Below, piece by piece: positions 8,829-21,399 of a DNA stretch of 24,000 nucleotides. Made by a program: the position numbers and the translations under genes. The notes under the pieces were generated by a model. It ran no database searches and had not been told where the DNA came from. It saw only the letters and a program-made list of their open reading frames with translations. Numbering within the stretch: the first letter of the stretch is position 1; every line of letters begins with the position of its first letter. The stretch spans positions 103,921 to 127,920 of the forward strand of contig NZ_VJOY01000005.1 in assembly GCF_007109405.1 (NCBI RefSeq), given 5' to 3'. Origin of the DNA: Pseudomonas mangiferae. GTDB lineage: Bacteria; Pseudomonadota; Gammaproteobacteria; Pseudomonadales; Pseudomonadaceae.

Positions 8829-10166
8829 TCAGTCGGCGGCGCGGACGTTCAGGCCGTACCAGTCCACCCGGCGGGTCAGCGCCATGGTCCCGGCCAGCAG
8901 GCCAAACACCAGCAGCGAGCCCAGCAGAAGGGCGTAGTCCTCGGCCCCTAGCAGGCCGTAGAGCAGCCCGTAGAGGGTCGCCAGGGCCGCGCCGAAGCCC
9001 AGGCCCCGGGTCCGGCCGCGCAGCACGTGGCTAGCGTAGTAGCCGTTGAGCAGTACGCAGGCGCCGGCCGACAGGCCGTAGGCCGGGCCGAACCCCAGGT
9101 GTTCGGACAGCGACAGCAGCAACAGGTAGAACAGCGCCAGGGACAGCCCCGCCAGGGCGTACTGGACCGGGTGCACCGAGCGCCGGCCGATCACCTCGAA
9201 GAGGAAGAACACGGCGAAGGTCAGCAGGATGAACAGCAGCGCGTACTTGATCGCCCGCTCGCTCTTCAGGTAGTGGTCCACCGGGTCGATGAAGGCCACC
9301 CCCAGGGTGCTGGTGGGGAAGCGCTGGCAACTGGCATCCTGGGCGCAGGCGGCTACCGCTTCCTCCTGGTTGGTGGCGAAGAAGCTGGTCTGCCAGCGGG
9401 CGCTGAAGCCGTGGTCGCCGCTTTCCCGCTCGCTGGGCAGGTACTCACCGAAGAAGCTCGGGTGCGGCCAGTCCGAGGCCAGCATGATCCGGCTGTCACG
9501 GCCGATGGGGTTGATGGACAGCTGCTCGCTGCCCTGCAGGTCCAGGTCGAAGGCGAACGCCAGGTCCTGCGGCGTCCCGTCCAGGGCCGGCAGCGGGGCA
9601 TGCACGCCGCTGCCCAGGCGGGCTTCGCCGCTGCCCGGTTCGAAGGCGATGCGCTGACCGTCCAGCTCCAGGCGCAGGTCATTGCGAATGCCGCGGATGT
9701 CGCTGACCCCCAGGGCCAGGAACGGCGCCTCGAAGGCATAGTCGGGGAATTCCGCCTCGCTCAGGCCGAAGCGCTCGGGCACCGCGAACTGCCCACTGAA
9801 GCGGTTGACGCCGTGGTACAGGCGGGCCTGATAGATGCCGCGGTAGCGCGCCTCGGTGGTCAGCCTGCCGTCCACGGCGAAGCGTTCCGGCAGCAGGTAG
9901 AGGCGACCCGCCACCTCCTGCTCCTGGGCGTAGCGGCTGCCGTCCTCGCGGGTGTTCCAGACGGTGAGCCGCTTGCGGTAGGGGACCACCAGCAGCGGGC
10001 CGTTGAGCTGCTGAGCGTAGCTGGAGCTGCGGGCGATGTCCGTCAGCACGCCGTCGCGCAGGCGCTGCCGCTCGGTCACCAGGCCGTCGATCATGGTCAG
10101 CGGAATCATCAGGAGAAGGATGAGCAGGGCGATGGCGCCCGCTTTGAAGCCCAGGGTGCGGATCAT
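8829..10166 (-). CDS. creD: Cell envelope integrity / inner membrane protein CreD
   Basis: The N-terminal TM helix (GAIALLILLLMIPLTMI) precedes the DGLVTERQ motif. A large periplasmic domain and a C-terminal cluster of TM helices follow, as in CreD. It lies immediately downstream of creBC. Confidence 0.9.
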   Translation of the reverse strand: MIRTLGFKAGAIALLILLLMIPLTMIDGLVTERQRLRDGVLTDIARSSSYAQQLNGPLLVVPYRKRLTVWNTREDGSRYAQEQEVAGRLYLLPERFAVDGRLTTEARYRGIYQARLYHGVNRFSGQFAVPERFGLSEAEFPDYAFEAPFLALGVSDIRGIRNDLRLELDGQRIAFEPGSGEARLGSGVHAPLPALDGTPQDLAFAFDLDLQGSEQLSINPIGRDSRIMLASDWPHPSFFGEYLPSERESGDHGFSARWQTSFFATNQEEAVAACAQDASCQRFPTSTLGVAFIDPVDHYLKSERAIKYALLFILLTFAVFFLFEVIGRRSVHPVQYALAGLSLALFYLLLLSLSEHLGFGPAYGLSAGACVLLNGYYASHVLRGRTRGLGFGAALATLYGLLYGLLGAEDYALLLGSLLVFGLLAGTMALTRRVDWYGLNVRAAD

Positions 10167-10235
10167 GGCGGTTCTCGTGCAGGGGATGACGAGCCGCAGT
10201 CTGGGCGGGCAACGGGGAGCCGGTATGGAGGGCCG

Positions 10236-10253
10236 GTGGAGACTTCGTGGAGA
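10236..10253 (-). promoter_or_regulatory. cre-tag-like direct repeat (putative CreB binding site) upstream of creD
   Basis: The minus strand reads TCTCCAC-GAAG-TCTCCAC, a heptamer repeated with an 11-nt period. Its core TCCAC-N6-TCCAC matches the E. coli cre tag TTCAC-N6-TTCAC at 4/5 positions in each half. It lies in the 100-nt creC-creD spacer, about 70-87 nt upstream of the creD ATG. Confidence 0.45.
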
Positions 10254-10266
10254 ATGTGTGGCGCCG

Positions 10267-11691
10267 TCAGTCCAGCGGCAGCCGCAGGCTCGCCTCCACG
10301 CCGTCGTCGCGGTTAGCCACCTGCAGGCTGCCGCCGTGGAGCTGCGCCACTTCCTGGACGAAATTCAGCCCCAGCCCGGTGCTCTTGCGGCCACTGGCCG
10401 GGCGCGGCAGGGAATAGAAGCGCTCGGTGAGGCGCGGCAGCGCGTAGTCCGGCACCGGCGGCCCCTGATTGAACACGCCGATACGCGCCGCGCGGCCCTC
10501 GGCCCGGGCGCTGAGCACCAGGGCGGCGCCCGCCGGGGCGAAGTCCAGGGCGTTCTCCAGCAGGTTGGCCAGGGCCTGGCGCAGCAGGAAGCGCTCGCCG
10601 CGCACCCGCAGGTCGCCGTCCACGTCCAGCCGCGCCACCAGTCCGTTCCGTTGGAGGCGGGCGGCCTGGGCCTGCAGCAGCTCCTCCAGCAGCGGCGCCA
10701 CGGGGATCGGCACCCGTTCCTCCAGGCCCTGGCGCTGCTCCACCTGGGCCAGGTTCAGCAGCCGCTCGATCAGGTGCTGCAGGCGCGTGCTCTCGCGGTC
10801 GATGTGGGCCACGAAGCGCTGCCGCTGCGCCGCGGGCATTTCCCCCTCCAGCAGCTCGGCGGCGCCGCGGATCGCCGCCAGCGGGCTCTTCAGCTCATGG
10901 GTGAGGGTGTGCACGTAGCGCTCCACGTAGGCCTTGCCCTCCAGCTCGACGCGCATCCGCTCCACCGCCTCGGCCAGGTGCCCCAGCTCGCCGCCGCGCA
11001 GCCGCGGCACCTCGGCGCGCTCGCCAGCGCTCACCGCTTGGGCGTAGCGGGTCAGCCGCCGCAGGGAGCCGCTGAGCCACCAGGACAGCAGGCCTCCCAC
11101 CAGCAGACCGAGGCCGATCAGCCCGCCGCCGAGCCAGGCGAGGCGCCGCTGGGAGCGCTCGATGTAGGGCAGCAGGGTGCGGTTCGGCTTGGCCACCGAG
11201 ACCACCCCGATGATCCGTTCGCCCTCGCGGATCGGTGCCGCCACGTACATCACCGAGGACTCCGGGTCGCCGTCCACCTCCCGGGTGGAACGCGCGCCGT
11301 AGCGGCCCTGGAGGGTCAGGTAGACGTCGTTCCAGCGGGAGTAGTCCTGGCCCACCGCCTCCCCCGCCGAATCCAGCAGCACCACGCCGCGGGCGTCGGT
11401 GACGTAGATACGGTGGTTCACCGCCTGCTTGCGCACGCCCCAGATGTCGGCCTGGGGCTGGCGCTGGCCGTAGGCCCGCAGCAGGTCCGGCAGCCGGCCC
11501 TGGGCCAGGGTGCCGCGCTTCACGTCGTCCCGCAGCAGTTCCGCCAGCAGGTTGGCGGTGTCCACCAGGGTCTCCTCGGTGGACTGGCGCACCCCCGGAC
11601 GGATCTCGTCCATCACCGTGCCCAGGACGAACCAGCCGGCCAGGCCGACGAACAGGAAGTAGGCCAGGAAGATGCGGATTCCCAGGGGCAC
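10267..11691 (-). CDS. creC: Two-component sensor histidine kinase CreC
   Basis: The start is GTG (cac at 11689-11691), 3 nt after the creB stop. The N-terminus PLGIRIFLAYFLFVGLAGWFVL is followed by a periplasmic domain and a second TM/HAMP region. The H-box is LTHELKSPLAAIRG, and the ATPase motifs are NLLENALDF and GLGLNFV. Confidence 0.9.
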   Translation of the reverse strand: MPLGIRIFLAYFLFVGLAGWFVLGTVMDEIRPGVRQSTEETLVDTANLLAELLRDDVKRGTLAQGRLPDLLRAYGQRQPQADIWGVRKQAVNHRIYVTDARGVVLLDSAGEAVGQDYSRWNDVYLTLQGRYGARSTREVDGDPESSVMYVAAPIREGERIIGVVSVAKPNRTLLPYIERSQRRLAWLGGGLIGLGLLVGGLLSWWLSGSLRRLTRYAQAVSAGERAEVPRLRGGELGHLAEAVERMRVELEGKAYVERYVHTLTHELKSPLAAIRGAAELLEGEMPAAQRQRFVAHIDRESTRLQHLIERLLNLAQVEQRQGLEERVPIPVAPLLEELLQAQAARLQRNGLVARLDVDGDLRVRGERFLLRQALANLLENALDFAPAGAALVLSARAEGRAARIGVFNQGPPVPDYALPRLTERFYSLPRPASGRKSTGLGLNFVQEVAQLHGGSLQVANRDDGVEASLRLPLD

Positions 11692-15609: not shown

Positions 15610-17613
15610 ATGAGTGCGCCGTCGACCCCGGAGGCCGCGACGCCCCGCATGAACCCGCCGGTGTTCTACAGCTCGGCGGCGGTCATCCTGCTGTTCGGCC
15701 TGGTGGTGATGGGCGCGCCCCAGCGCGCCGGCGACTGGCTGCTGCGGGCCCAGACCTGGGCCGCCGACAGCGTCGGCTGGTACTACCTGCTGGCGATGAC
15801 CCTGTACTTGGTGTTCGTGGTGGTCACCGCCCTGTCCGGCTATGGCCGGATCAAGCTGGGGGCCGACCACGACGAGCCGGAGTTCAGCTACCTGTCCTGG
15901 GCCGGCATGCTGTTCGCCGCCGGGATCAGCATCACCCTGTTCTTCTTCTGCGTTTCCGAGCCCCTGACCCACTTCGCCCAGCCTCCCCAGGGCGAGGGCG
16001 GCAGCCGCGAGGCGGCGCGCCAGGCGATGCAGCTGCTGTTCCTGCACTGGGGCCTGCACGGCTGGGGCGTATTCGCCCTGGTGGCCATGGCGCTGGCCTA
16101 CTTCGCCTACCGCCACAATCTGCCCCTGGCCCTGCGCTCGGCCCTCTACCCGCTGATCGGCAAGCGCATCGACGGCCCCCTGGGCTACGCGGTGGACGCC
16201 TTCGGGATAATCGCCACGGTCTTCGGCCTGGGCGCCGACATGGGCTTCGGCGTACTGCACCTGAACGCCGGCCTCGACTACCTCGTCGGCATCCCCCACA
16301 GCGCCTGGGTGCAGGCCACGCTGATCGCGCTGATGATGGGTGCGGCGATCCTGGTGGCGGTGTCCGGGGTGGAAAAGGGCGTGCGCCTGATGTCCGACCT
16401 GAACATGCTGCTGGCCTGCGGGCTGCTGCTGTTCGTGCTATTCGCCGGCCCCACCCAGCATCTGCTCAACACCCTGATCCAGAACCTCGGGGACTACCTG
16501 GGCGCACTGCCCACCAAGAGCTTCGACCTCTACGCCTACGACGAGCCCTCCGACTGGCTGGGCGGCTGGACGGTGTTCTACTGGGCCTGGTGGATCGCCT
16601 GGGCGCCCTTCGTCGGGCTGTTCATCGCGCGCATCTCCCGCGGCCGGACGATCCGCGAGTTCGTCTTCGGCGTGCTGTTCATCCCCCTCGGCTTCACCCT
16701 GGCGTGGATGTCCATCTTCGGTAACAGCGCCCTGGACCAGGTGATTGGCCATGGCTTCGGCGACCTGGCGCGGGTCGCCGTGGAAGAGCCGGCCATGGCC
16801 ATCTACCGGCTGCTGGAAACCTACCCCTGGAGCCGGGCGGTGATCGGCACCACGGTGTTCGTCAGCTTCGTGTTCTTCGTCACCTCGGCGGATTCCGGCA
16901 CCGTGGTGCTGTCCACCCTCTCCGCCCGCGGCGGCAGCGTCGACGAGGACGGGCCGAAGTGGCTGCGGGTGTTCTGGGGTGTCACCACCGCCCTGGTCAC
17001 CAGCGGGTTGCTGTTCGCCGGCAGCATCGACGCGCTGAAATCGGCGGTGGTGCTCACCTCCCTGCCGTTCTCGCTGATCCTGCTGCTGATGATGTGGGGC
17101 CTGCACAAGGCCTTCTACCTGGAGTCCCAGCGCCAGCGCGCGCGGCTGCATTCGCCGATGCCGGTGACCGGCCGCTCCAGCCGCCACGGCGGCGGCTGGC
17201 GCCAGCGCCTGGGCCAGGCGGTGCACTTCCCGTCCCGGGACGAGGTATACCGCTTCATGGACAGCCGCGTGCGCCCGGCGATGGAGGACGTGGCGGCGCA
17301 ATTCCGCGAGAAGGGCCTGAGCGTCGACACCGACCTGGACGCCAACACCGCCAGCCTCAGCCTGGAGATCGGCCACGGCGAGGAACACCCGTTCCTCTAC
17401 CGGGTGATCATGCGCGGCTACTTCACCCCGTCCTTCGCCATCGCCGGCCTGCAGGCGCGCAACCTCAACAATCGCCGCTACTACCGCGCGGAGGTGCACC
17501 TGGCCGAGGGCAGCCAGGACTACGACCTGGTGGGCTACAGCCGGGAACAGGTGATCAACGACATCCTCGACCAGTACGAGCGGCACCTGCAGTTCCTGCA
17601 CCTGGTGCGTTGA
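15610..17613 (+). CDS. betT: BCCT-family choline/betaine transporter, BetT-like with long cytoplasmic C-terminal extension
   Basis: The BCCT signature WTVFYWAWWIAWAPFVGLFIARISRGRTIREF is present. The protein has 12 TM-type hydrophobic segments and a hydrophilic tail of about 150 aa, as in BetT. No in-frame start exists upstream of ATG 15610, since TGA lies at 15532. ATG 15649 is an alternative start. The symbol rests on family resemblance plus the upstream operator, not on a search. Confidence 0.85.
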   Translation: MSAPSTPEAATPRMNPPVFYSSAAVILLFGLVVMGAPQRAGDWLLRAQTWAADSVGWYYLLAMTLYLVFVVVTALSGYGRIKLGADHDEPEFSYLSWAGMLFAAGISITLFFFCVSEPLTHFAQPPQGEGGSREAARQAMQLLFLHWGLHGWGVFALVAMALAYFAYRHNLPLALRSALYPLIGKRIDGPLGYAVDAFGIIATVFGLGADMGFGVLHLNAGLDYLVGIPHSAWVQATLIALMMGAAILVAVSGVEKGVRLMSDLNMLLACGLLLFVLFAGPTQHLLNTLIQNLGDYLGALPTKSFDLYAYDEPSDWLGGWTVFYWAWWIAWAPFVGLFIARISRGRTIREFVFGVLFIPLGFTLAWMSIFGNSALDQVIGHGFGDLARVAVEEPAMAIYRLLETYPWSRAVIGTTVFVSFVFFVTSADSGTVVLSTLSARGGSVDEDGPKWLRVFWGVTTALVTSGLLFAGSIDALKSAVVLTSLPFSLILLLMMWGLHKAFYLESQRQRARLHSPMPVTGRSSRHGGGWRQRLGQAVHFPSRDEVYRFMDSRVRPAMEDVAAQFREKGLSVDTDLDANTASLSLEIGHGEEHPFLYRVIMRGYFTPSFAIAGLQARNLNNRRYYRAEVHLAEGSQDYDLVGYSREQVINDILDQYERHLQFLHLVR

Positions 17614-17654: not shown

Positions 17655-17748
17655 CCGGGGGCTCGCCGCGTTCGAACTGTGCGTGACACCACAGGATCAT
17701 TCGCGCTTCTCCAGCATGCTGGCGCGTCCATGGCAAAGGGAATTCATC

Positions 17749-18534
17749 ATGCTGACGTTCACACGCAATACACGGGACGCCGACCCCGTCACCGGAACGG
17801 TCGACCTGGTCATCGGCAACAAACTGACGGTGAAGCTGAATGGCCTGGGGCCCGACAAGAAACATTACCAGGTCACCAGCGACAGCCCGTGCATCGACGT
17901 GAAACAGAAAGCGGACGAACGCTTCCAGGAACAGACGATCCGCTTCGAGGCCAGAATGGCCTGTCAGGGCGCCCGCATCACGGCGCTCAGTGGCACAGGT
18001 GAGAAATTCCTGACAGGGCTGACGTTTAATGTCGTGCCAAGGCTGGAGCTTCCACCCGTGAATACGGATGAGGGTGCGCTTGCACGGGTATTGTTGGCCG
18101 AATCCATAACCCCGGACGACCAAGAATTTCCTGGTGGCGAAGCCTCACTTACATCGATGCGCCTAATACAACAGGTACTCCTAAACAGATTAGGCTTTCC
18201 TGATATCAGCGTCTTCAATCGGCCAAGCGCTCGCACTATTACTGCACTCATCATGGCAGGCCTGGGAAATGAAGTTAAAGGTTTCGGGGCCTATCCAAAT
18301 ATTGAGGCCAAACAAGCCAGACTTATCGCGAATATACTTACTATCGGAAACGATGCCAGTGACAGACGTTACGCACTGTATCGAGATCATATTAAAAGGG
18401 CACTGGATGTCGTCACTGGCACGGTACCGCGCCTGGAGGGTGATTACTACGGATGGAGAACCAAAGAATCCTCTCACCCGGGCGGTGCCTATGAACAGCC
18501 CTACAATATCGCCGGCCAGACTTTTATAAACTAA
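17749..18534 (+). CDS. Hypothetical two-domain protein: N-terminal beta-rich domain plus C-terminal SleB/CwlJ (Hydrolase_2)-like cell-wall hydrolase-type domain; candidate antibacterial effector
   Basis: I prefer ATG 17749, with AAGGGA at 17736-17741 and a 7-nt spacer. The track start 17683 is a GTG. There is no signal peptide. The C-terminal half has three motifs in the family order. LARVLLAES corresponds to LARxxxGEA with the catalytic Glu. MRLIQQVLLNRL corresponds to VAxVILNRV. The terminal IAGQTFIN corresponds to IGxHxFY. The resemblance is at motif level only. Confidence 0.6.
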   Translation: MLTFTRNTRDADPVTGTVDLVIGNKLTVKLNGLGPDKKHYQVTSDSPCIDVKQKADERFQEQTIRFEARMACQGARITALSGTGEKFLTGLTFNVVPRLELPPVNTDEGALARVLLAESITPDDQEFPGGEASLTSMRLIQQVLLNRLGFPDISVFNRPSARTITALIMAGLGNEVKGFGAYPNIEAKQARLIANILTIGNDASDRRYALYRDHIKRALDVVTGTVPRLEGDYYGWRTKESSHPGGAYEQPYNIAGQTFIN

Positions 18535-18568
18535 GCCGCTCTTTTACAGAGAGATACAGGAAGACAAA

Positions 18569-19108
18569 ATGATGTCACGCGCTCTTTATCTTCTAGCATT
18601 ATCAGCGTGTTTATTGGGCATTAGCCATATCCCCATCGCTCACTCCAAAGAAAAATTCGGGCCCACTATATTCGAGGGACAAGTTTCACGTTTCGATGCA
18701 AGCCAGGCTCCACTTTTCCTGGAGCCTCTATACGAACTGCAATACCTGATCGTGAGCATGGGGAAAAATCAAATACTCAATCACTTCTGCATGGTCGGCT
18801 ATCGGTGGCCGGACGGCCATCAACGGGTAGCGGTGTACTGGCCGGAGGGACGGACGATCTATCGCTGGAATGGCCGGCGTGACAAGCCTGACCGATACAG
18901 CCGCTATGCCTCCACATTGTTCATGTCGCCCAGCATCGATCTCGACCACAACGTAGTGGAGCGCCAGGAAGACATGGGCATGGCCACCTACCTGCGATCG
19001 TCCGTGGGCGGGACGATCGCGGACTGCAAGGCGCACGGAACCTGGTACCGCGTGGAGCCCTTCCAGCCGCCGAAGGACGAAGACAACGATGAAGAAGGAT
19101 GGGAGTGA
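18569..19108 (+). CDS. Exported/lipoprotein partner of the upstream hydrolase-like gene; candidate periplasmic immunity protein
   Basis: AGGAAG (18558-18563) lies 5 nt before ATG 18569, and the gene starts 34 nt after the upstream stop. The N-terminus MMSRALYLLALSAC carries a lipobox-like L-S-A-C. Alternatively, signal peptidase I could cleave after IAHS. The tail is acidic (KDEDNDEEGWE). No family recognised. Confidence 0.6.
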   Translation: MMSRALYLLALSACLLGISHIPIAHSKEKFGPTIFEGQVSRFDASQAPLFLEPLYELQYLIVSMGKNQILNHFCMVGYRWPDGHQRVAVYWPEGRTIYRWNGRRDKPDRYSRYASTLFMSPSIDLDHNVVERQEDMGMATYLRSSVGGTIADCKAHGTWYRVEPFQPPKDEDNDEEGWE

Positions 19109-19148
19109 CGCAGGCTAGTTAGCGCCATCAGGTGCGTGGATAGGGTGA

Positions 19149-19619
19149 TTAGCGACAGTCGAACCGTCCACGCCAGCCTGCTGGATGGTCGCCTCGCCAC
19201 ATTGTTCCAACGCAAGTCTCACGATGATCGTCTAAGCGTCGACCCAGCTTCAGCAAGCCGCTTCCGTATTCGCAGACCAGCCATTTTCCGTCAGGGTAAT
19301 CCCCTTCAAATGACCAGGTAGAGGAAGCATCATCGGCATCAGGTCCGTCAGCATCCTGAGGTTTGAGCGCTCCGCCATGCTCAGGCGGACCATCGTATAC
19401 AGCGATGCTTTCTAATACCAATTGCGTGGGAATAGAAACCAACCTTGTTTCAGCAGGTAAATCTGCAGCCTTTATTTCAGCCGATTGAATCGGCAGCGTG
19501 AATGGGCATTCGAATTTTTCGCTTTCGGCCGTTTCCCGCGCATGAGCTTCCCCACAAAAAATAAGCAATATTAGTAGCGGTAATTTTCTCAAAAAATTAT
19601 TCAATGATTGAATATGCAT
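19149..19619 (-). CDS. Exported partner of the papain-fold gene; candidate periplasmic immunity protein
   Basis: Starting at ATG 19619 gives MHIQSLNNFLRKLPLLILLIFCGEAHA/RE, a signal peptide, and overlaps the upstream gene by 23 nt. An alternative TTG at 19592 gives MRKLPLLILLIFCGEAHA with no overlap. The mature protein has four Cys (ECPF, LVCEY, ETCVG, FDCR), consistent with periplasmic disulfides. The longer track ORF (to 19805) runs inside the upstream gene. Confidence 0.55.
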   Translation of the reverse strand: MHIQSLNNFLRKLPLLILLIFCGEAHARETAESEKFECPFTLPIQSAEIKAADLPAETRLVSIPTQLVLESIAVYDGPPEHGGALKPQDADGPDADDASSTWSFEGDYPDGKWLVCEYGSGLLKLGRRLDDHRETCVGTMWRGDHPAGWRGRFDCR

Positions 19620-19992
19620 CGGCATTATTGCTCGGATCATTATATCCACCTTTACTATTTTTACCCTTTCTACGGATGTATCTTTTGGAAACGAAAGGCT
19701 TTCTCTTGTCATCCTTCCACTGATCCATAATCCATATGCCATTGGCATCTTTTGAAAGAAAGAATGCAGCATGATTACCCGTAGAGTGGTTAGAGTAAAC
19801 GCCATTACTGAATGTGGCTATCGCCGTTCCCTTGTGAATTATTTTGTTCTCGTCTTCAAATACAGATTTTCCTTCATGCCAAAAAGCCGTATTAGGTATA
19901 TTTGTATAATGCTGAAGAAGTGCTACGCATTGCTTGGAGCCAACTTTGCTTGTGTTCTCCAACCCGTCTGCTTCTGGATAAATATAGGGCAT
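19597..19992 (-). CDS. Small (131 aa) papain-fold (NlpC/P60/CHAP-like) Cys-His hydrolase, BPSL0067/Tae2-like; candidate peptidoglycan amidase effector
   Basis: The order Cys (GSKQCVALLQHY), His (TGNHAAFFL), polar residue (IMDQW) is typical of papain-fold amidases. There is no signal peptide. The size and motifs match my recollection of the 'BPSL0067 family' and the Tae2 T6SS amidases. This is unverified. Confidence 0.65.
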   Translation of the reverse strand: MPYIYPEADGLENTSKVGSKQCVALLQHYTNIPNTAFWHEGKSVFEDENKIIHKGTAIATFSNGVYSNHSTGNHAAFFLSKDANGIWIMDQWKDDKRKPFVSKRYIRRKGKNSKGGYNDPSNNADAYSIIE

Positions 19993-20286
19993 AAAATAGC
20001 TGCTCGAATTTTTAATGAATAGTAAATTTTCAGAAAAATTTTGAACATGGTCTGATTCACATTTTCAACAGATCAATAGAGAGTTCGGCAGAGAACTGCG
20101 CCATCCAGTTAAGATTTTTATGCATGCGGGCATTGAATCAGCTGTTCCGATTGCTTCGATCTGACAAAGCAGCTGTCGTCTGGCCACATTGACCACGCCA
20201 CCCCTCATTCCCAGCCATCGACCGCGCTGAACTCTGCTGGCGGCCCATTGCCCACTTCCTTACCCATCGGAAAGAGGAGACAGGTT

Positions 20287-21399
20287 GTGAGCAACCCAGG
20301 CACGCAAGGCAAGGTGCGCTACGCCGTGGTCGGAGGCGGCTGGATATCCCAGGCGGCGTTCATGCCCGGCGTCGGCCAGACCGAGAATTCCGTGATGACC
20401 GCCCTGGTCACCGGCGACCCGCGCAAGGCCGACGAATTGGCCGGGCGCTATGGCCTGAAAAGTTATGCCTACGAGGACTACGAGAACCTGCTGGGCTCCG
20501 GGGAGATCGACGCGGTGTACATCGCCACGCCGAACTTCCTGCACCGCCAGTTCGTGCTGCCGGCGCTGAAGGCCGGCATCCACGTGTTGCTGGAGAAGCC
20601 CGCCGAAGCCGGCGAGGCGGCGGCGCGGGAGATCTTCGAGGCGACCAAGGCGTCCCGCGCCAAGCTGATGGTCGCCTACCGCCTGCACCACGAGCCAGGC
20701 ACCCTGGAGATGATCGAGCGGGTACGCGCCCGGGAGTTCGGCGACCCACGGCTGTTCACCTCCACCTTCTCCCAAAAGGTAGACCCGTCCAACCACCGCG
20801 CCCGCAACGGCTTCTGGGCCGGCCCGGTGGCGGATATGGGGCCCTACCCGCTGAACGCCGTGCGCAACCTGTTCGGTGCCGAGCCCATCGAGGTGAGCGC
20901 CGTAGGCGTGAAAACCCCGGGCCTGGGCTTCGATTTCCACGACAGCGTCACCGTTACCCTGCGCTTCCCCGAGGAACGCCTGGCCACCTTCACCGTGAGC
21001 TACAGCGTGCCGGGCAGCGAGCGCTTCCAGCTGATCGGCAGCGAGGGGGAGATCGAGGCGTCGCCCTGTTTCGGTTTCGGCCCGGGTACGGCGATCACCT
21101 ACCGCACCACCCGCGGCGAGCAGCAGGAGGAACGCCGCCAGGCGGTGCTGGACCAGTTCGCCGGCGAGACCGCGTATTTCTCCGACTGCATCCTCAACGA
21201 CCGCCAGCCGGAAGCCGATGCCGAGGAAGGCTGGCTGGACGTGCGGGTGATCGCCGCGGTGGAGCGCGCCCTGGAGAGCGGCCAATCCCAGCGGCTGGAG
21301 CCCTACGACCGCAGCAAGCGCCCTGGCCGCGACCAGGCCCGCCAGTACCCCCAGGGCGAGGTGCCGTCGTTCATCGACGCCGAGCCGCCCACCGGCTGA
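20287..21399 (+). CDS. Gfo/Idh/MocA-family NAD(P)-dependent oxidoreductase
   Basis: GTG 20287 is preceded by GAGGAG (20275-20280). The Rossmann N-terminus is VRYAVVGGGWISQAAF, followed by the family EKP motif (HVLLEKPAE) and a C-terminal alpha/beta domain. The track's 20248 start adds 13 codons without an RBS. Confidence 0.85.
   Translation: MSNPGTQGKVRYAVVGGGWISQAAFMPGVGQTENSVMTALVTGDPRKADELAGRYGLKSYAYEDYENLLGSGEIDAVYIATPNFLHRQFVLPALKAGIHVLLEKPAEAGEAAAREIFEATKASRAKLMVAYRLHHEPGTLEMIERVRAREFGDPRLFTSTFSQKVDPSNHRARNGFWAGPVADMGPYPLNAVRNLFGAEPIEVSAVGVKTPGLGFDFHDSVTVTLRFPEERLATFTVSYSVPGSERFQLIGSEGEIEASPCFGFGPGTAITYRTTRGEQQEERRQAVLDQFAGETAYFSDCILNDRQPEADAEEGWLDVRVIAAVERALESGQSQRLEPYDRSKRPGRDQARQYPQGEVPSFIDAEPPTG

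Follow-up and report, generated by a model that had tools for sequence, protein, structure and literature searches.

SleB's activity as a lytic transglycosylase requires a catalytic glutamate (PMC12331253). A toxin related to this enzyme has been described in Acinetobacter rudis CIP 110305, where T6EC3 (IMG gene 2566738812, 290 amino acids, Foldseek cluster 275; Geller et al. 2024, Mol Syst Biol, PMC11148199) joins a PAAR domain at its N terminus to an unannotated C-terminal domain in which Foldseek recognized a homologue of SleB (PDB 4F55). T6EC3 is toxic in the periplasm of E. coli and is inactivated by the substitution E108Q, and T6IC3, which carries a natural periplasmic signal, rescues this toxicity (PMC11148199). 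Here we describe two adjacent genes, which we call gene A and gene B, in a 24,000-nucleotide (nt) stretch of the Pseudomonas mangiferae contig NZ_VJOY01000005.1 (the window). We read them as an antibacterial effector-immunity pair, in which a SleB-type toxin would be delivered by a type VI secretion system (T6SS) and counteracted by a periplasmic immunity protein, and we give this explanation as a whole a probability of about 0.6. An earlier note on this DNA knew of no characterised secreted antibacterial effector built on this fold. T6EC3 makes that view outdated. Effector-immunity pairs that degrade peptidoglycan form a familiar class and, with one SleB-like T6SS toxin backed by experiment, the underlying principle cannot be called new.

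The pair lies in an island between a BCCT transporter gene (15610-17613) and a gene for a GFO/IDH/MocA oxidoreductase (20248-21399). The G+C content (GC) is about 0.68 in the flanks and falls to 0.37-0.60 between these two genes. The low-GC stretch consists of two convergent two-gene cassettes arranged tail to tail, and A-B is the left one. A P. mangiferae "hypothetical protein" (P0001) is 100% identical to the gene A product. The start proposed in the earlier note, the ATG at 17749, is supported by the N termini of homologues, which are alike (MLxF(K/T)RN); the proposed length of 262 residues had to be corrected to 261, with the TAA stop at 18532-18534. Gene B begins, as had also been described, 34 nt past this stop behind a good ribosome-binding site: its ATG is at 18569, and AGGAAG stands 5 nt before it. 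A scan for promoters and terminators gave counts no higher than those in shuffled sequences and was uninformative. The features of the left cassette are as follows.

17736..17741, plus strand: Shine-Dalgarno-like AAGGGA, 7 nt upstream of the gene A ATG (sequence reading)
17749..18534, plus strand: gene A, leaderless two-domain putative effector of 261 amino acids (open reading frame and translation)
17749..18036, plus strand: N-terminal immunoglobulin-like (Ig-like) beta-sandwich of gene A, residues 1-96, with the conserved motif VKLNGLGPDKKHY (AlphaFold2, Foldseek and family profile)
18037..18534, plus strand: C-terminal domain of gene A, residues 97-261, a putative SleB/CwlJ-like (Hydrolase_2 superfamily) toxin domain (hhalign)
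18100..18102, plus strand: codon of Glu118 (in LLAE), the predicted catalytic glutamate (conservation and alignment with E9 of SleB 4F55)
18558..18563, plus strand: Shine-Dalgarno sequence AGGAAG, 5 nt upstream of the gene B ATG (sequence reading)
18569..19108, plus strand: gene B, exported, putative cognate immunity protein of 179 amino acids from an unnamed family (linkage to the C-terminal domain of A)
18569..18646, plus strand: signal peptide of gene B, approximately residues 1-26 (by inspection)

Gene A had zero matches in Pfam (E <= 1), NCBIfam or PADLOC, and its sequence matches in the PDB were noise. Among the scans of A and B, matches to ubiquitin and ExtJ were likewise set aside as noise. 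A word-indexed protein search found only 7 relatives. We then ran an exhaustive HMMER search with a six-sequence profile against 1.84 billion representative proteins, which gave 362 at E <= 1e-3 and 254 at E <= 1e-10. When AlphaFold2 was supplied with 6 sequences, the C-terminal domain was modelled poorly, with a predicted local distance difference test (pLDDT) of 35-50; a 115-sequence alignment remedied this and produced a model of gene A with a pLDDT of 96.3 and a predicted template modelling score of 0.91. In this model, a beta-sandwich of seven to eight strands, and of strands only, spans residues 3-96 (pLDDT 94-98), whereas residues 107-261 fold into five helices and, after them, three short strands. 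The N-terminal region had been described as beta-rich and about 110 residues long; it is indeed beta-rich, but in the model it ends at about 96 residues. Foldseek matched this domain to filamin, antibody Ig and BIG2 domains, the family profile matched the S-layer Ig domain 4uj7 with an E value of 0.006, and relatives with extra copies of the N-terminal domain showed weak Big_1 and Invasin_D3 matches. By inspection, gene A has no hydrophobic segment at its N terminus and, as the earlier note held, no export signal.

We then turned to the C-terminal domain, which the earlier note had likened to SleB/CwlJ-type cell-wall hydrolases on the basis of three motifs. All three are present in the order given: LARVLLAES spans residues 111-119, MRLIQQVLLNRL spans 137-148, and IAGQTFIN occupies 254-261 (18508-18531 of the window). 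Running hmmscan with gene A against Hydrolase_2 (PF07486), the check that had been proposed, returned nothing at E <= 1; the family consensus likewise had no match to Pfam Hydrolase_2 at E <= 1, and the link is seen only at the level of profile-profile comparison. In a Pfam scan of 115 members, Hydrolase_2 was the most-matched family (6 of 115 at E <= 1, best E value 9e-4), with other families matched by 1-3 members each. Member P0294 carries the UniRef name "Cell wall hydrolase SleB domain-containing protein." For the profile-profile comparison, we assembled a diverse Hydrolase_2 alignment from the SleB catalytic domain of PDB 4F55, SleB homologues, and 13 phage proteins of the "cell wall hydrolase/endolysin" type, which share 23-37% identity with SleB. 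A 137-sequence profile of the C-terminal domain aligned by hhalign with 125 of the 125 template columns, with a local score of 30.5 (P = 1.9e-4) and a global score of 30.2 (P = 1.1e-5). None of 150 column shuffles of the template reached the observed values: shuffled scores were 11.5 +/- 2.6 (maximum, 18.5) in local mode and 2.0 +/- 1.6 (maximum, 7.8) in global mode, which corresponds to z-scores of about 7 and about 17, respectively. The reversed Hydrolase_2 template scored 12.4 and 6.7. A second hhalign run on other alignments recovered the same register, with P values of 5e-4 and 1.3e-3. A diverse profile was required for this result, as a narrow profile made from SleB only (effective number of sequences, 1.7) picked up the middle motif only, at a probability of 7%, and was discarded.

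The register obtained in this way places Glu118, Asn146 and Arg147 of gene A opposite E9, N27 and R28 of Hydrolase_2. In the Hydrolase_2 alignment, E9 and R28 are invariant, N27 is nearly so, and E9 is the sole invariant glutamate. Conservation of each of the three gene A residues is 90% or more across 115 sequences, and Glu118, which stands at the end of helix 107-118 in the AlphaFold2 model, is invariant in alignments A2 and A4. The aligned blocks pair LLAE118 with Y-x-E-ARGE, VLxNR147 with VILNR, QFxGF179 with QFSW, DPxxxxLYxW236 with DPTxGALYF, and G-x-x-F259 with IGxHxFY. Compared with canonical Hydrolase_2, the domain contains an extra helix, an insertion of about 15 residues (187-200), and the loop that follows the glutamate is longer. 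These data agree with the earlier proposal that the domain is a remote relative of Hydrolase_2 with the glutamate of LLAES in the catalytic position. The C-terminal domain is thus most likely a divergent member of the Hydrolase_2 superfamily, with Glu118 as the candidate catalytic residue.

Gene B has no Pfam, NCBIfam, PADLOC or PDB relative. With a hidden Markov model of the B family, we searched the six-frame open reading frames (ORFs) of the fetched loci that carry the C-terminal domain of A and found a B homologue beside this domain at 24 of 25 loci. It lies downstream in 23 of these, and at the other (L033) it overlaps the start of a fragmented A; the lone exception to the pairing is a Polyangium contig (L032). 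The named genomes among these loci are from Pseudomonas, Metapseudomonas otitidis, Cupriavidus, Achromobacter, a Neisseriaceae bacterium and Serratia silvae, and metagenome contigs are also represented. The number of B copies varies: there are three tandem paralogues in L006/L007 and two each in L023 and L029, and one locus (L005, 2168-3208) encodes a 346-residue head-to-tail B-B fusion. Pseudomonas sp. RIT-PI-AD has a syntenic locus (L025) with the order BCCT-A-B-GFO/IDH and 82% DNA identity to the window. At this locus (10061-10820), the gene A orthologue, about 85% identical, is frameshifted and B is intact, which is an orphan-immunity state. Furthermore, the same toxin domain is found on Rhs tips. 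Protein P0143 has RHS_repeat and TEN_YD-shell matches with the toxin domain at its C terminus; in P0147, P0312 and an ORF of L042, the toxin domain follows the Rhs core-end motif …NPFRF.TKYTD.ETGL…DP…. Behind the toxin domain of L036 and L042 there is again a B-family protein with a signal peptide. Since B also stands behind toxin domains borne on Rhs proteins, it tracks the toxin domain and not the N-terminal domain.

All 13 of the aligned B homologues have a hydrophobic N-terminal leader, as judged by inspection, and the family shares the motifs NHFCxVGYxW, VYWxE, STYL and DCxxHG. The cysteine pair located in the NHFC and DCxxHG motifs is mostly kept (C74 in 11 of 13, C153 invariant), which fits an oxidising periplasmic location. 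The earlier note had pointed to a lipobox in gene B. The sequence MMSRALYLLALSAC does fit L-S-A-C at residues 11-14, but this cysteine is not conserved across B homologues. The hydrophobic stretch continues to ...IAHS|KE, where signal peptidase I could plausibly cut. Plain signal peptides predominate among the homologues, and a clear lipobox is seen in only some of them, for example that at L030. The conserved feature of B, as predicted from its leader, is export to the periplasm and not lipidation. Taken together, the 24 of 25 linkage, the duplication of B, the orphan B and the Rhs-tip loci support the pairing of effector and immunity protein put forward in the earlier note; judged from these sequences, a toxin-immunity relationship between A and B is very probable.

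To survey the architecture of the family, we retrieved 195 family proteins, 178 of which contain the start of the toxin domain. An Ig-like domain precedes the toxin domain in 94 of the 178, the toxin domain stands alone in 70, and 14 have other N-terminal extensions. Three of these 14 are Rhs tips, and the ORF of L042 is a fourth, outside the census. Sec-type signal peptides are present in about six of the retrieved proteins and long C-terminal tails in eight, and none of the 195 is fused to PAAR; a search with the toxin-domain alignment likewise turned up no PAAR fusion. Within gene A itself, GC falls at the border between the domains, from about 0.60 in the N-terminal domain to about 0.49-0.55 in the toxin domain. 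In close orthologues, the N-terminal domain is conserved above the toxin domain (81% versus 70% and 60% versus 41%). The drop in GC at the border, together with the better conservation of the N-terminal domain, suggests that a toxin-immunity module may have been exchanged behind a steadier N-terminal domain, as in polymorphic toxins.

The distribution of the family is patchy. Scanning one genome per species for 185,579 species, with conserved-motif patterns drawn from the six closest sequences, yielded 12 loci, and a metagenome scan for related loci gave 3 short contigs only. Several genomes carry two paralogous A-B loci, namely ERZ27284818 (L001/L006), GCA_032052615.1 (L022/L024) and Pseudomonas sp. 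RIT-PI-AD (L023/L025). These paralogous loci are at different chromosomal sites, and the identity of their A proteins to the A of the window is 73-85% and about 48%. In a metagenomic subfamily (P0133, P0134, P0135, P0146, P0149 and P0154; for example L037, 322-1707), the toxin domain is N-terminal and is followed by a low-complexity tail of 160-280 residues ending in the conserved RLPPxGxxAFDPRLTPAWAGxKLPG. A B-family gene was not found downstream at L037.

The right-hand cassette of the island, which faces A-B, has the following features.

19149..19625, minus strand: Tai2-like immunity gene of the STY0301 family (NCBIfam NF042415, E value 2.6e-17); its start codon is uncertain, and the ORF reaches 19805
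19597..19992, minus strand: gene for a Tae2-family T6SS amidase effector of 131 amino acids (PDB 6WIN, NCBIfam BPSL0067 family)
19112..20190, no strand: low-GC insertion of about 1.08 kb bearing Tae2/Tai2 (blastn synteny breakpoints against RIT-PI-AD; GC 0.37-0.40 versus 0.68 in the flanks)

The 131-residue protein aligns end to end with PDB 6WIN, "Type 6 secretion amidase effector 2" (E value 3.5e-41), and belongs to the NCBIfam BPSL0067 family with an E value of 2.4e-48. The Tae2/Tai2 insertion is not present at the syntenic locus of Pseudomonas sp. RIT-PI-AD. Since Tae2/Tai2 is a discrete insertion beside A-B, the intergenic site seems to be one where cassettes aimed at the cell wall accumulate. 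An imperfect direct repeat of 17 nt, GTCGCCTCGCCACATTG / GTCGTCTGGCCACATTG, occurs at 19188-19204 and 20175-20191 with a spacing of 987 nt. Its second copy is located exactly at the right edge of the insertion, and L025, L001 and L022, which are related loci, do not have the repeat. Either chance or a recombination junction may account for it.

Gene A lacks an export signal and therefore needs a dedicated delivery route. In Serratia silvae, an orphan hcp gene (PF05638, E value 1.7e-20) lies on the opposite strand, 550 bp from the A-B orthologue. This locus (L031, 8940-12144) is an island between mgtE and cusF with the order hcp (minus strand), a gene of 133 codons without assigned function (minus strand), A, B and another such gene of 169 codons, and it is the only locus with a T6SS structural gene next to the A-B pair. 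The survey of neighbourhoods for vgrG, hcp or PAAR that the earlier note had called for thus showed hcp in Serratia silvae and, in the window, the Tae2/Tai2 cassette, and the other loci examined had housekeeping neighbours only. The same note had recognized no MIX, PAAR, Rhs or other delivery marker. This is accurate for gene A itself, which matches nothing in Pfam or NCBIfam, but not for its relatives: the fusion of their toxin domains to Rhs cores means that delivery markers do exist within the family. A phage lysis cassette had been named as a context that would speak against a weapon. We searched with gene A and the family consensus by tblastn and found no true match in 50,697 phage records or 72,556 plasmid records; the neighbours at the A loci examined are not phage genes, although PHROGs was not searched. 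The absence of phage and plasmid homologues excludes the phage-lysis reading, and the empty tblastn searches likewise ruled out plasmid cargo. An anti-phage defence role for A-B was dismissed for want of a PADLOC match. With the adjoining Tae2/Tai2 cassette, the hcp neighbour, the Rhs-fused relatives, the lack of a leader and the PAAR-fused precedent T6EC3 as the points in its favour, T6SS delivery of gene A is slightly favoured.

We propose the following course of events. A T6SS would carry gene A into a target cell, with the Ig-like N-terminal domain (residues 1-96) as a candidate loading or adaptor module. In the periplasm of the target, the C-terminal domain (residues 97-261) would cleave the MurNAc-GlcNAc (N-acetylmuramic acid-N-acetylglucosamine) backbone of peptidoglycan, with Glu118 as the presumed general acid; cleavage of the glycan strand by gene A is probable from the alignment with Hydrolase_2. 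The predicted signal peptide would export B to the periplasm of the producer, where B would bind the toxin domain and block toxin arriving from sister cells. It is a bolder idea that the Ig-like domain is an unrecognised T6SS loading or marker domain for Hcp or VgrG cargo and that B represents a new immunity fold against SleB-type lytic transglycosylases. We consider this combination doubtful, although worth stating.

Several observations weigh against the proposal of a T6SS-delivered SleB-type toxin, and they concern both the fold and the route. Gene A is below every curated threshold for Hydrolase_2. The Pfam gathering threshold of this family is 27 bits, and the best member, P0139, reaches 18.4 bits (E value 0.0033) over positions 2-78 of the 100 in the model. 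The hhalign probabilities are only 18-61%, which indicates membership of Hydrolase_2 at the level of the superfamily and not of the family. The invariant histidine of Hydrolase_2 (IGxHxFY) is replaced by asparagine or glutamine in the family (consensus GNxFY, and GQTF in the window), a change that could mean altered catalysis or substrate binding. As for the route, most loci are orphan bicistrons amid housekeeping genes; neither vgrG nor hcp nor PAAR occurs within 10 kb of them. The linkage to T6SS consists of one hcp neighbour, one Tae2 cassette and the Rhs fusions only, and Rhs toxins are not delivered exclusively by T6SS. A test for T6SS marker domains (MIX, FIX, PAAR, DUF4150, Rhs and others) found none in gene A, and no T6SS was found in the 24-kb window, a result whose scope is the window and not the genome. 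Moreover, the Sec-type signal peptides on a few family members mean that the toxin domain also uses other routes.

This last point leads to the possibility that A-B is an effector-immunity pair served by something other than a T6SS, such as another contractile injection system, outer-membrane vesicles, or an undescribed exporter that recognises the Ig-like domain. The toxin domain occurs in at least four contexts, being Ig-fused, free-standing, at the tip of Rhs proteins or preceded by a Sec signal peptide, and most loci have no T6SS genes within 10 kb; both observations would suit such a route. However, the sole secretion-system genes that we saw beside family members are T6SS related (hcp and Tae2/Tai2), the published SleB-like toxin is PAAR fused, and phage or tailocin genes were not seen, and we give a different route only an outside chance. 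Somewhat less probable still is a bacteriocin like pesticin or colicin M. In that case A would be released by lysis or leakage, its Ig-like domain would bind an outer-membrane receptor, and after import the SleB-like domain would degrade peptidoglycan, with B playing the part that Pim plays for pesticin. A leaderless protein with a non-catalytic N-terminal domain and a C-terminal glycan-cleaving domain, paired with a periplasmic immunity protein, follows the logic of pesticin and Pim, and orphan bicistrons without nearby T6SS genes would be expected of it. What speaks against a bacteriocin is that the beta-sandwich begins at residue 3, with no disordered N-terminal translocation segment or recognisable TonB box, that no lysis gene adjoins A-B, and that the same toxin domain is carried on Rhs tips. 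In addition, a T6SS cassette (Tae2) adjoins A-B, and hcp adjoins the Serratia orthologue.

Two other explanations question the activity or the purpose of gene A. The C-terminal domain may have lost or changed its peptidoglycan chemistry, so that it binds glycan without cutting it or acts on another envelope polymer and is toxic on some other basis. The replaced histidine, the helix at 187-200 that SleB does not have, a similarity that stays under every curated threshold, and the unusual "double-membrane" phenotype of T6EC3 are compatible with such a change. Against this, the glutamate and the NR motif are nearly invariant over 115 diverse sequences, which argues for a retained active site, and E108Q abolished the toxicity of the analogous T6EC3; we hold changed chemistry to be quite unlikely. 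The least credible alternative, in our view a very improbable one, is that gene A is a housekeeping enzyme of cell-wall remodelling with a dedicated periplasmic inhibitor and is no weapon at all. Gram-negative Hydrolase_2 proteins are often housekeeping or phage lysis enzymes, and A-B does sit amid housekeeping genes, but the absence of an export signal puts the cell's own wall out of reach of gene A. The patchy distribution (12 loci in 185,579 species), the low-GC island, the duplicated immunity genes, the pseudogene of A beside an intact B, and the Rhs-fused relatives are also at odds with a housekeeping role.

With a T6SS-delivered effector and its immunity protein as the preferred reading, four aspects of this locus are new. 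The toxin domain represents a family without a curated model (362 representatives at E <= 1e-3), tied here to the SleB/CwlJ superfamily and provided with a candidate catalytic glutamate. The immunity family, which has neither a curated model nor a solved relative, tracks the toxin domain across delivery architectures. The Ig-like domain in the place of PAAR, VgrG or Rhs carriers offers a concrete cargo-loading hypothesis. Finally, the island is a hotspot with two cell-wall-targeting cassettes tail to tail, one predicted to act on the glycan strand and the other on the peptide cross-link. If confirmed, gene A would be a second SleB-type effector, the pair would give two new Pfam families, and B would provide a case for protein inhibition of lytic transglycosylases. 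If the N-terminal domain does turn out to be a loading domain, A/B would represent a modular toxin-immunity unit of wide occurrence, used as cargo fused to the Ig-like domain, at the end of Rhs proteins, as a free-standing domain and after Sec signals. New cargo effectors could then be sought by way of the N-terminal domain, much as with MIX, FIX and WHIX.

How does A-B compare with systems that are already known? Among cell-wall enzymes, the closest are SleB/CwlJ and the related phage endolysins (PF07486; PDB 4F55 and 4FET), whose helices and strands are, in the profile alignment, collinear with those of the C-terminal domain of gene A. SleB/CwlJ and this domain share the same order of blocks: a glutamate at the end of helix 1, xLNR, QF(S/G)(W/F), DPxxG-LY and G-x-FY. 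Unlike SleB/CwlJ, gene A lacks both a signal peptide and a peptidoglycan-binding domain, has a putative immunity gene as its partner, and is not found in phage genomes. In its overall design, A-B resembles the Tse3/Tsi3, Tge2/Tgi2 and Tae2/Tai2 pairs, in which an immunity protein of the periplasm is likewise encoded with a small leaderless effector that degrades peptidoglycan. T6SS effector-immunity pairs of the Tge and Tae groups are often orphan bicistrons distant from the T6SS cluster. Unlike Tge and Tae, gene A has another catalytic fold, with no PDB sequence similarity at E <= 10, and an extra Ig-like N-terminal domain. The folds of the glycan-cleaving T6SS effectors Tse3/Tge1, Tge2 and PseM are unrelated to gene A. 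PseM (PA0989), a T6SS muramidase of P. aeruginosa, had been considered as a relative and was ruled out on this ground.

Pesticin, a muramidase bacteriocin of Yersinia pestis, is likewise modular and leaderless; its C-terminal domain cleaves glycan, and Pim is its periplasmic immunity protein. Pesticin differs from gene A in its T4-lysozyme-like fold, its TonB box and its receptor-binding domain, none of which is recognisable in gene A. Among Rhs/YD-repeat polymorphic toxins, P0143, P0147, P0312 and the ORF of L042 share their toxin domain with gene A, which itself has no Rhs repeats. The nearest counterpart remains T6EC3/T6IC3, to which we liken A/B by published description and not by sequence; the size of the domain and the position of the glutamate are compatible with the likeness. 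T6EC3 is a "specialised," PAAR-fused effector, whereas gene A has an Ig-like N-terminal domain and is of the stand-alone cargo type, with no T6SS core domain and no PAAR match. The two are alike in having a SleB-like toxin domain without Pfam annotation, with a glutamate early in the domain that is essential in T6EC3 and predicted to be catalytic in gene A, and a downstream immunity protein (putative in the case of B) with a periplasmic signal. The domain implied for T6EC3, about 180-200 residues, is also nearer in size to the C-terminal domain of A (165 residues) than to canonical SleB (about 125 residues). A-B is therefore not a new kind of system; what sets it apart is that both its toxin and its immunity family are unannotated and that its N-terminal domain is new.

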